A DNA stretch of 64,000 nt from a virus: positions 32,001 to 96,000 of IMG/VR virus record IMGVR_UViG_3300049427_000004; one strand, 5' to 3'. Each line of letters begins with the position of its first letter. Positions within the stretch are counted from its first letter, which is position 1. The notes beneath the pieces are model-generated. The model had not been told where the DNA came from and did no database searches. It worked only from the letters and a program-made list of their open reading frames with translations. Position numbers and translations under genes: made by a program. This document shows positions 18,724 through 59,440 of this stretch, piece after piece.

Positions 18724-19055
18724 AGTAATGTCACACTCACAACTTCAGAATAATCCACCCATTCGAACCCATCATCAAACTCAACTTTGAACTTTTTCTG
18801 ATATTGATTGAATGCTGTGACAACGCCAACAACTTCACGAAAATTAAACTTCCCAAACAACTCGACCTTGATTTCATCCTTTTGAATATACGACTGATTC
18901 AAATTGGAAAGCATTATTTCCCATTCATCTTCATGAATCTCTGGTCGTGTTTTTAGTTTATGATCACCCAAATATTTATTGATAGTCTCTTTATGTTCTG
19001 GTAGCATCATTCTGCTGCTCTCCCACAGACCATTTCCAGTTAGCTTTTTACTCAT
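18720..19055 (-). CDS. YolD-like protein (mutagenesis accessory)
   Basis: GNGLWESSRMMLPEHKE motif; coupled to the Y-family polymerase. Confidence 0.85.
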   Translation of the reverse strand: MSKKLTGNGLWESSRMMLPEHKETINKYLGDHKLKTRPEIHEDEWEIMLSNLNQSYIQKDEIKVELFGKFNFREVVGVVTAFNQYQKKFKVEFDDGFEWVDYSEVVSVTLL

Positions 19056-20293
19056 TTGTAATGTCCTCCGATTTTAGCGTTTCTGTCTACCGCTTGACCA
19101 GCGCTGGTTAATGAACTTGCTCTCAGTATTGACACTTCTCCGAATCGATCTTTGATGTCATCCATAACCTTATCAACAGCTCTCTTCTTCTCAGTGTCAT
19201 CAAACAAGGAAAGTTGATAAGTGTCAGCACTAGTCAAGTTGGAGATTGCAACGCTTAACCTTCGAACAGGCATTCTATCCCAATGAGTGTAAAAAAGTTT
19301 CTTTACAGCAGCATAGACATCTACCGTAACGTTCGTAGGATCGACTAACTTCATTTGTCTGCTGAATCCAGTAGGATTATCCCAGTCTGCTCCAGACAGC
19401 CCCATTGATACGACAGAACCCATTAAACCCTTTTCTCTCGTCCTTCTACAAATCTGTGAGCATAAATCCAGTAACACCACTTCAATCTCCCATGCTTCCC
19501 TGTAGTCCCTAGGAAGCGTCATACCATTGCCAATTACCTTCTGATGGCTATGAGTGCTTGGAGTCACTGGTGAGTCATCTATGCCGTTCGCAACCCTCCA
19601 GATGACCTGACCATTAACACCCCATTTGCTGAGTCTTTTTATTGGAGTCTTGGCTAAATCACCAATTGTTCTGATTCCCATTCTTAGGAGGTGCTGCTCC
19701 ATCCTTGATCCAATGCCCCACATATCTCGAATCGGATTATCCCAAATATGTTTATCTAGCTCATCTTTCTTCAGATAAAAAAATCCATCAGCATTCTTCT
19801 TAGCTATCATGTCACAGCAAAGTTTTGCAATTACCTTGTTTTCTCCAATTCCAGCTCTTGCATATATTCCAGTTTCGGTCATGATTCTTTTCTGAATGAG
19901 CTTTGCCATTTCAGTTATCGAATTTCCAAACAAATGTAACGAACCAGAGCAGTCAACAAATAATTCATCTATACTATATGGTTCAACCAAATCACTGTAA
20001 GTCTCAAGAATTCGGGTGATTTGCATAGAAACTTTAATGTATTGCTCCATATGTGGTCGAACAATAACCAAATCAGGACACTTTTTCAAAGCTTGCCATA
20101 GAGCTTCAGCTGTAGTAACACCAAACTTTTTTGCAAGTGGGCATGCCGCCAAGACAATTCCACTGCGTCTTTCTGGATCTCCAGCTACTACAAGAGGTTT
20201 GTCTTTATACTCAGGGTAGTTTGCCTTCTCGACAGACGCATAAAAACTTTGCATGTCGATTAGCATAATGGATCGTTTGTTTTTCTGAGTCAC
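19052..20293 (-). CDS. uvrX: Y-family translesion DNA polymerase (UvrX/DinB-like)
   Basis: LIDMQSFYASVE, YSIDELFVD, NKVIAK, MWGIG; GTG start at 20293 after GGAGG. Confidence 0.9.
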   Translation of the reverse strand: MTQKNKRSIMLIDMQSFYASVEKANYPEYKDKPLVVAGDPERRSGIVLAACPLAKKFGVTTAEALWQALKKCPDLVIVRPHMEQYIKVSMQITRILETYSDLVEPYSIDELFVDCSGSLHLFGNSITEMAKLIQKRIMTETGIYARAGIGENKVIAKLCCDMIAKKNADGFFYLKKDELDKHIWDNPIRDMWGIGSRMEQHLLRMGIRTIGDLAKTPIKRLSKWGVNGQVIWRVANGIDDSPVTPSTHSHQKVIGNGMTLPRDYREAWEIEVVLLDLCSQICRRTREKGLMGSVVSMGLSGADWDNPTGFSRQMKLVDPTNVTVDVYAAVKKLFYTHWDRMPVRRLSVAISNLTSADTYQLSLFDDTEKKRAVDKVMDDIKDRFGEVSILRASSLTSAGQAVDRNAKIGGHYK

Positions 20294-20310
20294 ATTGATT
20301 CCTCCGAATA

Positions 20311-20357
20311 AGAACATTTGTTTGCGTAATAGCTATTATACTACAAACATACGTTCG
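20311..20357 (-). promoter_or_regulatory. Two LexA (SOS) boxes in the uvrX promoter region
   Basis: AGAACATTTGTTTG (20311-20324) and CAAACATACGTTCG (20344-20357) match Firmicute CGAAC-N4-GTTCG; TATAAT at 20335-20340 on the minus strand. Confidence 0.8.
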
Positions 20358-42611: not shown

Positions 42612-42631
42612 CCCTAGATCAATATCTAGGG
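42612..42631 (-). terminator. Hairpin terminator at the end of the YopR-like gene
   Basis: CCCTAGAT-attg-ATCTAGGG followed by a T-rich run on the minus strand. Confidence 0.6.
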
Positions 42632-43600
42632 CAATTGATAAACACTTTTCAGAACTTCTTCATTTAAAACGTCCTGTTTTAGACGATATAAATCACCCTC
42701 GGTCTTGTCGTTAAATCGATCCATAATCATGTCATAGTGCTCATCCACTATTTGATTATTATTGGACACGTATAGCTCTTTTAAATAATAGAGCATACCG
42801 CTCTTCGCAATATTAGCTGGTGTGAATGCAGGTTCGTCGATGCTTTTTGCAATTCTAGCCAGTGCGCTATATACAATGCTTACTCTGGCTTCATTGAAGC
42901 TTTTTACGCGAGTTTTTGCTGTACGAATTATATAATTATTTTCAACTAAAGTTGTGAATTCTGACTTTATATCAGCTGCTGGATCTCCATTTGCTTTGTG
43001 ATACCGTTCTTCATTGTAAGCGTTCATACAGATATCAATAGTTTCTTCTGGAACAGGTATGGTTCTACTAAGAGTGTTATCATCATGTAGATGAAGTCTG
43101 TGATTCGCAATATCTATGCTTTCTCTTTGTAAATTTAGTAATTCAGAACCACCTGTGCCCATCACGCCCTGAAAAATCAATTCAATTATCGCTTTATCTC
43201 GATGATTTACTCTGCCTCTGATTATTTTATTGATTTCGTCTCTAGTCCAAAACCTTTTCAGTACTTTGTTCGCGAACATTTGCTTCCACTCAGTATCAAC
43301 GAAGTCTAAAGGGTTAGTTCCAGTCTTATATCCAAGTTCTAAATTCCAATCAATATATTTCGATACATATGCTACGTTTGCCCCACTGGAAGCTTTTGTG
43401 GCTGGTCTAAAGAGATAAAATAGCTTCAATAGATCATCACGATTGAAATCAGCTAAGTCCTTATCGAGTTGTTCTTCAAGAGGTTGAGACACTTTAAAGA
43501 TTCTTGCGTTAATTTCTCTCGTTCCCTTGCTTTTAGTTGCCAGATATTCAAATTTGCGGTCTTGATTATATAGTCGGTCTTCATAGACAACATTAGACAT
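42626..43600 (-). CDS. SPbeta YopR/SroF-like master repressor (catalytically degenerate tyrosine-recombinase fold)
   Basis: 324 aa; YIDW, DKAIIELIFQGV, SELLNL, LVENNYIIRT and TPANIAKSG match my recollection of YopR; catalytic R and HxxR absent; follows a YopQ-like gene. Confidence 0.75.
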   Translation of the reverse strand: MSNVVYEDRLYNQDRKFEYLATKSKGTREINARIFKVSQPLEEQLDKDLADFNRDDLLKLFYLFRPATKASSGANVAYVSKYIDWNLELGYKTGTNPLDFVDTEWKQMFANKVLKRFWTRDEINKIIRGRVNHRDKAIIELIFQGVMGTGGSELLNLQRESIDIANHRLHLHDDNTLSRTIPVPEETIDICMNAYNEERYHKANGDPAADIKSEFTTLVENNYIIRTAKTRVKSFNEARVSIVYSALARIAKSIDEPAFTPANIAKSGMLYYLKELYVSNNNQIVDEHYDMIMDRFNDKTEGDLYRLKQDVLNEEVLKSVYQLP

Positions 43601-43621: not shown

Positions 43622-44968
43622 TTATTCAAACATGCTTCTTAATTCTTCTTGAAAATACTTTCTAATCAATTCTTTACTTTGGTTGGAATTTCTATTTCCT
43701 TGCTCTAGCATAATTTTGTCTAGTTTATTACCAGTTCCTTTTGTATAGTCAATCGTTTCAATTCCTTGAGTAATTAGACTAACAGGAAATTCTAATGATC
43801 CATTATATTTGTCGTAAATCAATTTTGCTAAAATCATAAATCCGCAGTGCATATTGTGATGATTAAACCAGCTTACAGAACGTCTTTTTTTCATGTCTGT
43901 TTTAAAATCTTCTGGGTATGCAGACAAGAAATATCCATAAAACTTTTTCAAGAAATCAGAAATCTCATACATCTCTTTTGTGCTTTCTGGTTTAAAGGTA
44001 ATATTTATTGAGTCAGCAAGTATTGAGTAGTTTGTGATCATATTCAAAGTCTTGCTTACAGTAGTCTTATCTGTTTCTACTCTATCTCTTAGTTCTGGAA
44101 TTTGAATCAAGTTTTTGGTTACTAGACCACCGAAAGAGTCATCTGTATTAAATCTTACTAAGTTCTTATCAAAGCGATTGACAGTATTCAATAATCCGAT
44201 ATGGTAACGAGCCATATTTAAATCATAATTACGAATCGAAACTTCAAATGATCCTTCTAAATCAGGATTCTCTTCCAAAGCTGCCATGGTTCCCATCAAA
44301 CGGTGCATGCCGTCTACAATGTTGAGGTTCGTTCCCTCTTCAATAATCAAATCCCCATCTTCGTATTCATAATTGTCATTTCCATCTGCAAGTATGTTGA
44401 AAGTTAATGTTGACTTAAGAAATTTACCTTCAAGCATTAATCTTGCGATATTATTCACGCTCTTTTTTATTACTGTAGGAGTTTTTTTGATGTTTCCTTT
44501 TGCCATTAACTTTTTCTTAGGTGCTCTTTGTGTTTCATAGTTATACGTCAAAAGACCTGCGTTCCATATCTTTTTAAGTTCTTGGTAAGTGATTAATGTT
44601 AAAAATTCATTGTGAGATGCTCTCAGTACACCTTCAATGACATAGGGAAATTCAAACCTGTCCTCTTGTTTCAGTTTAAGTTTTAATCCTTTTTGAATTT
44701 CTTTCTCGCTAAAAAATAATGTTGGAGCAATTCTTTCGTCTTTAGCAATCACATGCATTGCATGAATAATACAAATTAATTCTTCTTGGGTCAAGAAATT
44801 CAGTTTTTCATTATCATTCATGACTTGATCAAAAGTACCAAAAGTCATTTTGTGCTTCTGTGCGAGATATTCATCGATTTCTCTCAATTTGTCCTTATCT
44901 TTTGTCAAATCTGCAAACACTTCATTTATTGATTCTAAGATGTCTTTCTCTTGTGCTACTTCGCTCAT
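43622..44968 (-). CDS. DGQHR/DndB-domain protein, SPbeta YopQ/SroE-like
   Basis: YNYETQR, IVDGMHRL, IGLLNT; 448 aa; synteny with the YopR-like gene. Confidence 0.75.
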   Translation of the reverse strand: MSEVAQEKDILESINEVFADLTKDKDKLREIDEYLAQKHKMTFGTFDQVMNDNEKLNFLTQEELICIIHAMHVIAKDERIAPTLFFSEKEIQKGLKLKLKQEDRFEFPYVIEGVLRASHNEFLTLITYQELKKIWNAGLLTYNYETQRAPKKKLMAKGNIKKTPTVIKKSVNNIARLMLEGKFLKSTLTFNILADGNDNYEYEDGDLIIEEGTNLNIVDGMHRLMGTMAALEENPDLEGSFEVSIRNYDLNMARYHIGLLNTVNRFDKNLVRFNTDDSFGGLVTKNLIQIPELRDRVETDKTTVSKTLNMITNYSILADSINITFKPESTKEMYEISDFLKKFYGYFLSAYPEDFKTDMKKRRSVSWFNHHNMHCGFMILAKLIYDKYNGSLEFPVSLITQGIETIDYTKGTGNKLDKIMLEQGNRNSNQSKELIRKYFQEELRSMFE

Positions 44969-50981: not shown

Positions 50982-51413
50982 TTATGTACTTCCATTATTA
51001 TTACGAACATAATTGTATAATATTTGAGTCTGCCTTTTAGTTAATTTTCTAATACCACACATCAACTGCTCTTGATTGCATAATTCCATGTAATTAATCA
51101 TTTCTTCGTAAGACGCAGGTAGTAGTTCTTCTTTCTTAAATGTAATATGTTTAGATAACTTTGAATAAACTGAATCTCTTTTACTAGTAAGTATTGCATA
51201 GACTCTTCCACTACTAAGATTACAGATCCTTGATATCTCATCAACCGATTTGCATTCAATATAATATAGCCTAAGAATTCCTCTTTGCTCTTCGCTTAAA
51301 TAATCGTTGAAATAGAACAAGTTAATTTGCATTTCATCCCAGTAACGATTGATTAAATTTTGAACCGATCCTAACATCCTACCTTTAGTCTTTCTTCTCA
51401 TGTCTGGGTTCAT
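50982..51413 (-). CDS. Sigma-70 region-4-like HTH protein
   Basis: LSEEQRGILRLYYIECKSVDEISRICNLSSGRVY. Confidence 0.6.
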   Translation of the reverse strand: MNPDMRRKTKGRMLGSVQNLINRYWDEMQINLFYFNDYLSEEQRGILRLYYIECKSVDEISRICNLSSGRVYAILTSKRDSVYSKLSKHITFKKEELLPASYEEMINYMELCNQEQLMCGIRKLTKRQTQILYNYVRNNNGST

Positions 51414-52346: not shown

Positions 52347-52388
52347 CGAACATGCGTTCTTGATATTTAAAATACCCTATGCTATACT
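52347..52388 (+). promoter_or_regulatory. LexA box plus SigA promoter
   Basis: CGAACATGCGTTCT (52347-52360) abutting TTGATA-N17-TATACT with extended TG. Confidence 0.85.
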
Positions 52389-57585: not shown

Positions 57586-58444
57586 TTATCATTATCACCT
57601 TTCTGCTATTAGTTATAAAATATTCATTTTATGTACTTAGTAAACTGCTCAGTCACTTCATTTCCTTTATCGAAAATCGCTCCATTCTCCTTCACCTCAA
57701 AACCAGATAATTTGAGCAATTCAATAATTTCATCCTTTGTTTTACTAAAGTAAAAATCATCAGTGTCTTTTTGGAACTTTTCTAATTTTGATGACACACT
57801 TACCACCACCTTATGAAAGGATCAATTTATTAGCCGATAGCAACAATTTGTCTAACTAAGTTCATTCTATAATTCGGTTCGCTCCACATAATTTTTTTTC
57901 TTTCTTCTACCTCATATTCAGCAGCATCTTTTTCTTCTTTCAGTTTATCAATATTATCATTCAGTATCATGTAATTTCGTTGAATCTCCAGAAAGATTTC
58001 TTCCAACTCTGAGTTAGGATTTTTGAGTACAAACGATTCAAGTTTATCAATTGATTGTTCTAACTTCATCATATTCAACCCCCAATGAAAATATAGATTC
58101 ATGTGCTTTCTTTATGTATTACTGCTTCTTTTTGATAAGTTCATCTTATCATTTATATATGTAAACTGCAACAACTATTTTACATTTTTTCGTTTTGTTA
58201 TTGATATATAAAAAAGTCCAACATGATCACTCGGATCATACTGGACTATGTGGGTTCATTCTTCAGAATGTTTCTCATATTTTAAAGAGCATAACTTTTT
58301 TATCACCGATCTTCACACTGGCCTTTCTTGTTCTTTCAGCTTCAGTAAGTATTGATATCACATTACCAAATCCCAAATTTTCAAAAAATTCCGCAATGCC
58401 TTCTTTGCTAAACATTGCATCACGAGTACCCCAAATTTTATAAC

Positions 58445-58870
58445 TCATCTATATATCCCCTCTTTTATTAAATTTTTTATGTATTGTATTTTTTCTTCCG
58501 ATTTAAATATATCCAGTAACCCAGATGAGACTAAAAGCGCAAGATCTACTTTCATCATATCTTCATCATCTAATACTGTTATTTTATTTTCATAATCTAA
58601 ACGTTCTTTGTCTACAGTCCTCACTTGCTCCAGAAGGATAACTGAGTCACGTTCAATTTTGTATTTTTCAGTTTTTATTTCAACATGAGTTGGAAGTTTA
58701 GCTTTTTGTATCTGAGAAGTAATAGCTGCCACTGCTACAGTAGGACTAAATCGGTTTCCAACGTTATTTTGATACACGAGTACAGGTCGTAGCCCACCTT
58801 GCTCTGATCCCGTTACAGGAGATAAATCTGCTAAGTAAATATCCCCTCTTTTAATCCATGAAGACGACAT
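58445..58870 (-). CDS. mazF: MazF/EndoA (PemK-family) endoribonuclease toxin
   Basis: [56 protein letters not shown]...[14 protein letters not shown]; catalytic Arg and Thr retained. Confidence 0.95.
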
Positions 58871-59043
58871 CTCTCTCACTCCTCAAAATACTATTAATTT
58901 TAATTTTATATAATTCCCTTTATTGTTCACTATTTAAATTCAATGTAATTAGACCATTCGAACAAACTACTTTATTTGGCATTCGTATAATTCACTTTTT
59001 ATCTTATAAATGAATTATAAGACTATGTACCTAATACTACAAG

Positions 59044-59057
59044 CGAACATACGTTTC
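59044..59057 (-). promoter_or_regulatory. LexA box upstream of mazF
   Basis: CGAACATACGTTTC matches CGAAC-RNRY-GTTYC. Confidence 0.7.
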
Positions 59058-59230: not shown

Positions 59231-59440
59231 CTACTGAGAAGGCTCCTTTATCGTCCATATTTCGTACACAGTAACCCCTAGAGCCTCTGCAATCAAATAT
59301 GCCCTATATAATGATGGTTCACTATTGTTGTTCGCCAGCATCGTTATGGTCGTTCTACTGATCCCTGTGAGCTGTGCTAACGTCTTCTGATCCATCTTAT
59401 TGCGCCAAAGCAGTATCTTAAGATTGTTTTCAATTTCCAT
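59231..59440 (-). CDS. XRE-family HTH regulator
   Basis: IENNLKILL...MDQKTLAQLTGISRTTI...PSLYRAYLIAEALG. Confidence 0.85.
   Translation of the reverse strand: MEIENNLKILLWRNKMDQKTLAQLTGISRTTITMLANNNSEPSLYRAYLIAEALGVTVYEIWTIKEPSQ

Follow-up and report, generated by a model that had tools for sequence, protein, structure and literature searches.

Is a MazF-type toxin gene that a temperate phage carries behind a LexA box an orphan, or is it one half of a module? The question is raised by a locus on the minus strand of positions 32001-96000 of a 178,866-bp IMG/VR virus record (IMGVR_UViG_3300049427_000004, here G000; 34% G+C), a stretch of 64,000 nucleotides (nt) that we call the window and from whose first letter positions are counted below, unless another locus is named. 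A first-pass annotation had described the gene as an orphan MazF/EndoA toxin under a LexA box with no antitoxin gene. We are confident that the locus is a conserved two-gene operon behind this box and not an orphan toxin, and, judged from its sequence, the operon is most likely a toxin-first type II toxin-antitoxin (TA) pair whose antitoxin family would be new and unrelated to MazE. To the central element of this reading, namely that the protein of 57 amino acids (aa) encoded downstream is the cognate inhibitor (antitoxin) that would bind and neutralise the phage MazF, we give a probability of about 0.6. What is new here is that an EndoA-type MazF is combined with a downstream partner of a new family, with predicted LexA control and with a MazF site conserved inside the operon.

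A conserved partner gene downstream of mazF

The first-pass annotation had looked for an antitoxin gene only upstream of mazF, and there its description holds: no MazE-sized open reading frame (ORF) is present, as the same strand has none of at least 25 aa between 58880 and 59230. The gene next upstream, which encodes a helix-turn-helix (HTH) protein (59231-59440), appears to end in a hairpin and T run of its own, seen by eye and left out by the automatic terminator scan. The canonical mazEF order, with the antitoxin gene first, is not found; the partner lies downstream. Indeed, a conserved ORF of 57 aa (58275-58448, minus strand) overlaps the end of mazF by 4 nt, its ATG being nested with the mazF TGA (ATGA), and it is preceded by a strong and correctly spaced ribosome-binding site, AAAGAGGGG (58457-58465, minus strand), within the last mazF codons. 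An intrinsic terminator found by the terminator scan, with a 14-bp stem followed by a T run (58215-58247, minus strand), lies behind it. Thus, mazF and its partner are adjacent and co-oriented, with one promoter at the 5′ end and one terminator at the 3′ end, and form a single operon. The orphan call therefore gives way to a strong candidate for an unannotated cognate antitoxin, since this translationally coupled ORF follows MazF in 13 of the 14 loci where it occurs, and more generally ‘orphan toxin’ calls made from upstream inspection alone are unsafe.

The linkage of the two genes was established by several searches. A word-indexed search of 5.8 billion proteins gave five homologues of the partner (57-86% identity), from two Paenibacillus genomes and three metagenome contigs, and all five have a MazF homologue immediately upstream, one of which (in L003) had been left uncalled by the source annotation. 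A scan of viral contigs gave the same pair on a 180-kb phage contig (L010); a scan of viral contigs started from the single MazF protein confirmed no loci, and one started from an alignment succeeded. Six remote members, of 52-60 aa, came from a profile search of 1.84 billion cluster representatives; five of them are located 40-50 nt behind a PemK_toxin gene, and one of these (L016) has the same DUF7667/HTH_3 neighbourhood as the window. Finally, a hidden Markov model scan of 80 IMG/VR mazF loci gave one more partner locus (L063). In all the collections searched, the partner family thus comprises 14 loci, of which 13 are located directly behind mazF at a distance of 0-50 nt. The only partner without a MazF (L013:152-334 / L014:626-808) lies next to a convergent gene for a NucS_C-domain protein, no MazF remnant being detected there, and fits an antitoxin that has outlived its toxin.

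The partner has no match in Pfam, PHROG, NCBIfam or the PDB sequences. It shows neither a MazE, ribbon-helix-helix (RHH) or AbrB profile match nor the M-x3-Y-x-E-M helix that binds MazF, and the host MazE that was scanned alongside it does match the MazE models. Nothing matched the region in a megablast against GenBank phages, or the partner in a tblastn search of phages. Profile matches to four long repeat proteins (P0008, P0010, P0014 and P0015) were taken as spurious matches to helical motifs, the last three of these proteins having no informative Pfam family, and kinship to the SHOCT_2-type ORFs downstream of other phage MazFs was rejected (hhalign probability 0.1). A weak match to the PADLOC model PbeC (E 0.004) was disregarded as well. 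The ratio of nonsynonymous to synonymous substitution rates (dN/dS) of the partner is 0.06-0.16 where dS could be computed, synonymous sites being saturated otherwise, and indicates strong purifying selection. In addition, AlphaFold2 (AF2) predicts a compact beta-alpha-alpha-beta-beta fold with a mean predicted local distance difference test (pLDDT) of 90.9. Because of this low dN/dS and the confident fold, the partner is considered a real protein.

The toxin gene and its C-terminal tail

The mazF gene encodes by homology an EndoA-type PemK/MazF endoribonuclease of 141 aa (58445-58870, minus strand). The ORF finder lists it as 144 aa (58445-58879) from a GTG at 58879; this GTG is located inside the Shine-Dalgarno (SD) sequence GAGGAG (58884-58879), therefore the true start is almost certainly the ATG at 58870, which gives the same 141 aa as in L006. 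The product matches Pfam PemK_toxin (PF02452) with an E-value of 2.3e-33 (residues 10-116 on profile positions 1-106 of 109) and falls in PHROG 1936, ‘MazF-like growth inhibitor’. The closest solved structures are Bacillus anthracis PemK (4hke) and Bacillus subtilis EndoA/MazF (4mdx, 4me7 and 1ne8), with E-values of about 1e-47 over residues 9-125, and the phage protein is presumably about as near to each of these two MazFs as they are to one another. R31 and T54 align with R25 and T48 of the B. subtilis protein, which we take to be the catalytic residues; R31 is invariant across the MazF relatives, and T54 is replaced by S-T in L007 and L010. These results agree with the earlier description of a near full-length EndoA homologue with its catalytic residues, and the alignment equally displays the 2-aa insertion (DYENK against T--DK) and the C-terminal extension of about 20 residues past the EndoA end that had been reported. 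The dN/dS of mazF is 0.13-0.29. RNA cleavage by the phage MazF is thus predicted from its homology to enzymes shown to cut UACAUA, a strict 6-nt motif in the case of the B. subtilis, Listeria monocytogenes and Staphylococcus aureus MazFs (bioRxiv 10.64898/2026.08.06.743204).

The extension had been proposed to be autoinhibitory, an idea for which we find no support. Indeed, only the three closest loci share the tail, which is short or unrelated in the other partner-linked MazFs, and its last codons in the window (I-K-E-G-I-Y-R) are at the same time the ribosome-binding site of the partner; the tail also bears a UACAUA. In L004, the homologous AAAGGAG lies past the mazF stop, in a non-coding spacer. 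From this comparison, the extension looks like a former spacer, for the most part, that was pulled into frame by the gene overlap.

LexA box and predicted SOS control

At 59044-59057, CGAACATACGTTTC matches the Bacillota LexA consensus CGAACRNRYGTTYC exactly, as had been noted, and is the sole exact match in 64 kb; with at most one mismatch, the consensus matches three times in the window, against 0.3 expected. On the operon strand (minus), this Cheo-type box reads GAAACGTATGTTCG and directly adjoins the -35 element of a putative sigma-A promoter (59014-59042, minus strand), which we located by reading the sequence: TTGTAG at 59042-59037, a 17-nt spacer and TATAAT at 59019-59014. The automatic promoter scan left out this TTGTAG-17-TATAAT arrangement, whose -35 matches the consensus at 3 of 6 positions. 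A leader (5′ untranslated region) of about 130 nt (58871-59007, minus strand) follows, its 5′ part being conserved with L006 and its 3′ end carrying the SD sequence GAGGAG; an Rfam scan of the leader and the operon gave no family near the gathering threshold.

This layout, namely ata-GAAC-N4-GTTC-(g/c)c-TTGxxx-16/17-TATAAT-like at 74-205 nt 5′ of mazF, is conserved among relatives. It was found in nine of the 11 partner-linked loci with enough upstream sequence to be counted, against one of seven close MazF relatives without the partner (Fisher p 0.009), the background of the search pattern being 0.10 per kb, and the box stands at the same place relative to the promoter in L003, L004, L006, L010, L011, L012, L016 and L063. 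The first-pass proposal that mazF is SOS-controlled is thus supported by a box that abuts the promoter and recurs with it. Moreover, the lexA gene of a Paenibacillus host is itself preceded, about 45-55 nt before its start, by a GAAC-N4-GTTC box, and the phage carries a classical SOS gene, for a Y-family (ImpB/UvrX-like) polymerase (19052-20317, minus strand), with a one-mismatch LexA box (20344-20357, minus strand) in the spacer of its TTGCAT...TATAAT promoter. Because of these two boxes, LexA control of the mazF operon is credible, and from the conserved promoter layout we infer that LexA binds here and places the operon under SOS control.

Several other motifs were noticed in the window. 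A third LexA-like box, with one mismatch, is located at 52347-52360 on the plus strand. An inverted repeat (CTTATAA-N5-TTATAAG, 59003-59021, minus strand) overlaps the -10 element and the likely transcription start, and L003 and L004 have other short inverted repeats at the equivalent spot. Autoregulatory operators are one possible role; such repeats are common in AT-rich DNA. A second TACATA (59024-59029, minus strand) lies within the promoter spacer and is presumably not transcribed.

A MazF motif between the two genes

A single copy of the EndoA-type MazF motif UACAUA (TACATA in the DNA, 58478-58483, minus strand) is present in the operon, 35 nt 5′ of the partner ATG. In the aligned mazF-partner junctions, seven of 13 operons have a UACAUA 28-45 nt 5′ of the partner start, and in each of these seven (about 590 nt long) it is the only copy. 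Its coding context varies: the motif lies within codons of the MazF tail (Tyr-Ile) in the window, L003 and L006, overlaps the mazF stop codon (ACA TAA) in L004 and L005, and falls in the non-coding spacer in the remote members L011 and L016. Therefore, the motif and not the protein sequence seems to be conserved. As a control, TACATA occurs within -45 to +60 of the mazF stop in only two of 48 other phage mazF loci (Fisher p 1.2e-4), and the host chromosomal mazEF operons have no such TACATA. No structure is predicted for the junction stretch (z +0.85).

The same motif is abundant in the rest of the phage. In the sense strand of the ORFs of the whole record, UACAUA ranks first among the 4096 hexamers for over-representation, with 161 occurrences against 78 expected from synonymous-codon shuffles (z 11), and its reverse complement occurs 56 times. 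The excess is seen in each of the three frames and on genes of either orientation, with density peaks at 10-50 kb and 120-130 kb of the record. Avoidance of UACAU had been the expectation for the phage, and the opposite was found. SPbeta (L098-L100) likewise has UACAUA at rank 1 (116 against 58), and 300 kb of a Paenibacillus chromosome show no over-representation (29 against 34.5). Since MazF-site enrichment of SPbeta and phi3T transcripts has already been published (Guler et al., bioRxiv 10.1101/2023.04.27.537455), the enrichment in the present phage extends that result and is not a discovery. UACAUA-rich phage mRNAs would therefore provide abundant targets for a phage-borne MazF.

These observations suggest a simple circuit. 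In the lysogen, LexA would hold the operon low, and DNA damage would lift LexA, so that MazF and its partner are both made. Free MazF would then cut UACAUA, which is over-represented in the mRNAs of the phage itself, and the lone conserved UACAUA that separates its own coding core from the ribosome-binding site of the partner would be cut as well. Such a cut would leave a mazF message without a stop codon or 3′ part and release a separate partner mRNA with a 5′-OH start and the terminator end, and the balance would shift to the inhibitor, i.e., a negative feedback. This circuit is the most sensible if the partner is an inhibitor. Read from the motif and its position, self-cleavage feedback at the junction appears to us plausible at somewhat short of even odds. 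The fuller proposal, in which the partner founds a new antitoxin family for EndoA-type MazFs and the operon is an SOS-triggered, self-limiting RNase switch that trims UACAUA-rich phage and host transcripts, is put forward more tentatively still. If true, the host MazEF checkpoint, known to be exploited by arbitrium phages, would here have a counterpart inside the phage itself. The conserved cleavage motif between the cistrons offers a simple and testable autoregulatory circuit.

Role of the partner and alternative readings

The partner is likely an inhibitor because of the linkage, the gene overlap, its SD sequence, the shared terminator, the selection on its sequence and the junction motif, and because a search of the whole 179-kb phage record for MazE-, YosL- or AimX-like proteins, which could inhibit MazF in its place, found none. 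An L-x3-Y-x-E-M match inside the ORF at 50982-51413 is at chance level and was not taken as MazE/YosL/AimX-like. Several observations speak against an antitoxin. Typical MazF antitoxins have an acidic or disordered tail that binds the toxin, and a MazE-type helix; the partner has neither and is basic (net charge +3) and fully folded. Its weak fold likenesses are to small winged-helix-like DNA binders, at noise level (Z at most 3.8). When the L004 pair was modelled as a single chain by in-frame read-through (TAA as Q), the model reached pLDDT 89 and a predicted template modelling score (pTM) of 0.66, which are scores of the whole chain and not of the interface. The junction UACAUA is missing from six of 13 operons, the five closest loci are phylogenetically non-independent, and the MazF of L063 falls outside the partner-linked group in what is a quick tree. 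In addition, close MazF relatives in other SPbeta-like contigs (L018 and L021) have no partner; therefore, a MazF of this type can exist alone, e.g., under host MazE.

The leading alternative, which we nevertheless consider unlikely, is that the partner is not a stoichiometric inhibitor and works as a small winged-helix-like nucleic-acid binder, regulating the operon or phage early genes at the transcriptional or post-transcriptional level or serving as an adaptor that alters MazF targeting, or else as an AimX/YosL-like blocker directed mainly at host MazF. The partner is indeed basic and compact, with an invariant basic patch (E-A-E-R-x-R-K and G-x-K-K) and the weak likeness to DNA-binding winged-helix domains, and the short inverted repeats over the -10 box in several loci, found by reading the sequences, could provide sites for a DNA binder. 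However, the structural matches are all at noise level: Foldseek against the PDB gave E-values above 3 and VIA-align a best Z of 3.8. The PDB sequence profile gave only weak EF-hand-like matches (E at least 0.13) and the ESM Atlas only unnamed clusters. Moreover, many antitoxins also bind DNA, so DNA binding overlaps with the inhibitor reading instead of excluding it. As for a blocker of host MazF, SPbeta-family phages do encode such small proteins (PMC10769878), but the partner is unlike MazE, YosL and AimX and lacks their M-x3-Y-x-E-M helix.

Of slightly lower probability is a MazF that is orphan in function, being held in check by host MazE or acting on the host MazE-MazF balance, where it might titrate host MazE or form heterodimers with host MazF as the first-pass annotation had suggested, with the 57-aa protein unrelated to it and merely co-transcribed. 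The setting would allow it: Paenibacillus hosts have a canonical chromosomal mazE-mazF (L104:1507-2178 and L103), the toxin of which shares 68% identity with the phage MazF, manipulation of host MazE and MazF is known from phi3T and SPbeta (PMC10769878), and L018 and L021 are close relatives that do without the partner. In addition, MazE-less MazFs are common on phages, as the survey of 80 IMG/VR loci with an EndoA-like mazF (L018-L097) indicates: none of the 42 distinct ORFs located just upstream of these genes matches a MazE-type Pfam family. What makes chance co-transcription hard to credit is linkage in 13 of 14 loci over deep divergence, together with the start/stop overlap and the shared terminator, and the conserved MazF motif is placed exactly between the two cistrons, where it would couple their expression.

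Very improbable, finally, is a phage MazF that is silent or re-purposed as a decoy for host MazE or for phage anti-MazF factors, with the junction UACAUA being a target of host MazF, for although host MazF probably shares the specificity (bioRxiv 10.64898/2026.08.06.743204) and the phage genome is rich in UACAUA sites that it could use, the catalytic R and T positions and the SEQGG-RP and N-x-GN motifs are invariant across a clade under purifying constraint (dN/dS as above) and give no sign of lost activity. The inhibitor reading thus remains the favoured one.

Phage context, origin and wider survey

The operon is carried by an SPbeta-like temperate phage, the known relatives being large Paenibacillus prophages. 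The window encodes an MrpR/YopR-type master repressor with an integrase fold (42626-43600; PF22822 and PF22823) beside a DndB/YopQ-like protein (43622-44968), and because the repressor adjoins this YopQ-like neighbour, lysogeny control is considered SPbeta-like. The first-pass link to SPbeta and host-MazEF biology was therefore apt, given this repressor and the UACAUA-rich transcripts; the known relatives of the module are found in Paenibacillus and not in B. subtilis. Orthologous prophages are carried by Paenibacillus sp. CGMCC 1.60092 and P. xylaniclasticus NBRC 106381. Around the orthologous module in the former (G001:C1:1400001-1500000; L120-L124), the G+C content is 31-36% throughout, against 48% for the chromosome; since it is low across all 100 kb sampled, the prophage there must be very large (>100 kb). 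The C-terminal helix of the host MazE, SMQRGYMEMAKINLNM, has nearly the same motif as SPbeta YosL, SMAQGYMEMGDINREI (the MQRGYMEM helix).

In the quick tree, 10 of 11 partner-linked MazFs group with one partner-less contig, with a Shimodaira-Hasegawa-like approximate likelihood-ratio test (SH-aLRT) support of 86, and this group is nested in a well-supported clade (96) that includes the host chromosomal MazF. The tree fits the capture of a chromosomal-type mazF followed by a single gain of the partner.

Most MazF genes of phage contigs have no MazE-type neighbour, and diverse small ORFs lie downstream of them. In the survey, these ORFs belong to small families, including DUF6870 (five times), SHOCT_2 (four times) and a family of 112 aa (L076-L093). 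A conserved ORF of 32-38 aa (M-K-I-x-x-F-x-K-K-L-E-R-E-G-I...) was also observed on SPbeta-sized contigs (L019:2926-3024 and L022:2893-3039) behind a MazF with a different C-terminal extension, and its sequence suggests that it may be another partner family. Phages and other mobile elements may therefore often carry MazF modules that lack MazE and are possibly toxin-first.

Recent work has shown that the lysis-lysogeny decision of SPbeta-family phages, which carry MazE mimics and MazF-site-rich transcripts, centres on host MazEF. The present relative of SPbeta has taken a copy of MazF aboard, placed it behind a LexA box and paired it with an unrelated small protein. If this partner is an inhibitor, it would represent a new MazF antitoxin fold.

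Comparison with known systems

The nearest known system is the B. subtilis MazEF pair (EndoA/NdoA with EndoAI/MazE; 4ME7 and 4MDX). Its toxin is a close homologue of the phage MazF (E about 1e-47, the aligned blocks being highly similar), with the same fold family and catalytic R/T positions and a UACAUA specificity that is probably shared. In contrast, the phage operon has no upstream mazE, its downstream partner has neither an RHH domain nor an MQRGYMEM-type helix, and it is phage-borne behind a LexA box, whereas the B. subtilis pair has a chromosomal alr-mazEF-rsb context.

In gene order, the operon resembles the toxin-first type II modules higBA, mqsRA, hicAB and brnTA, in which a small partner is likewise tightly coupled downstream of the toxin, but the partner family here is new. 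We know of no MazF/PemK system with a toxin-first order, and our literature search found none; with an inhibitor as partner, this would be the first such MazF module to our knowledge. Toxin modules under a LexA box are found in Escherichia coli, namely dinJ-yafQ, yafNO, tisB/istR and symER. These differ from the present operon in toxin family, host phylum and box, which here is of the Cheo type, and our operon is borne by a prophage whose own induction is SOS-dependent.

The AimX/YosL/phi3T_93 proteins of SPbeta-family phages act on host MazE-MazF (Zamora-Caballero et al. 2024, PMC10769878; Guler et al., bioRxiv 10.1101/2023.04.27.537455). Common to that network and the present phage are the MrpR/YopR repressor type, MazF-motif-rich transcripts and small proteins that control MazF around lysis-lysogeny, the partner being a candidate for such a role here; those phages use the host MazF and MazE-mimicking helices, whereas the present one has its own MazF and a partner without the mimic motif. 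Finally, the solitary MazF-mx of Myxococcus xanthus, for which MrpC is a surrogate antitoxin (reviewed in PMC4803016), is also a MazF without a mazE gene that is controlled by an unrelated protein. The surrogate of MazF-mx is a transcription factor encoded by a distant gene, whereas the candidate inhibitor of the phage MazF is a dedicated small protein, co-transcribed with the toxin.

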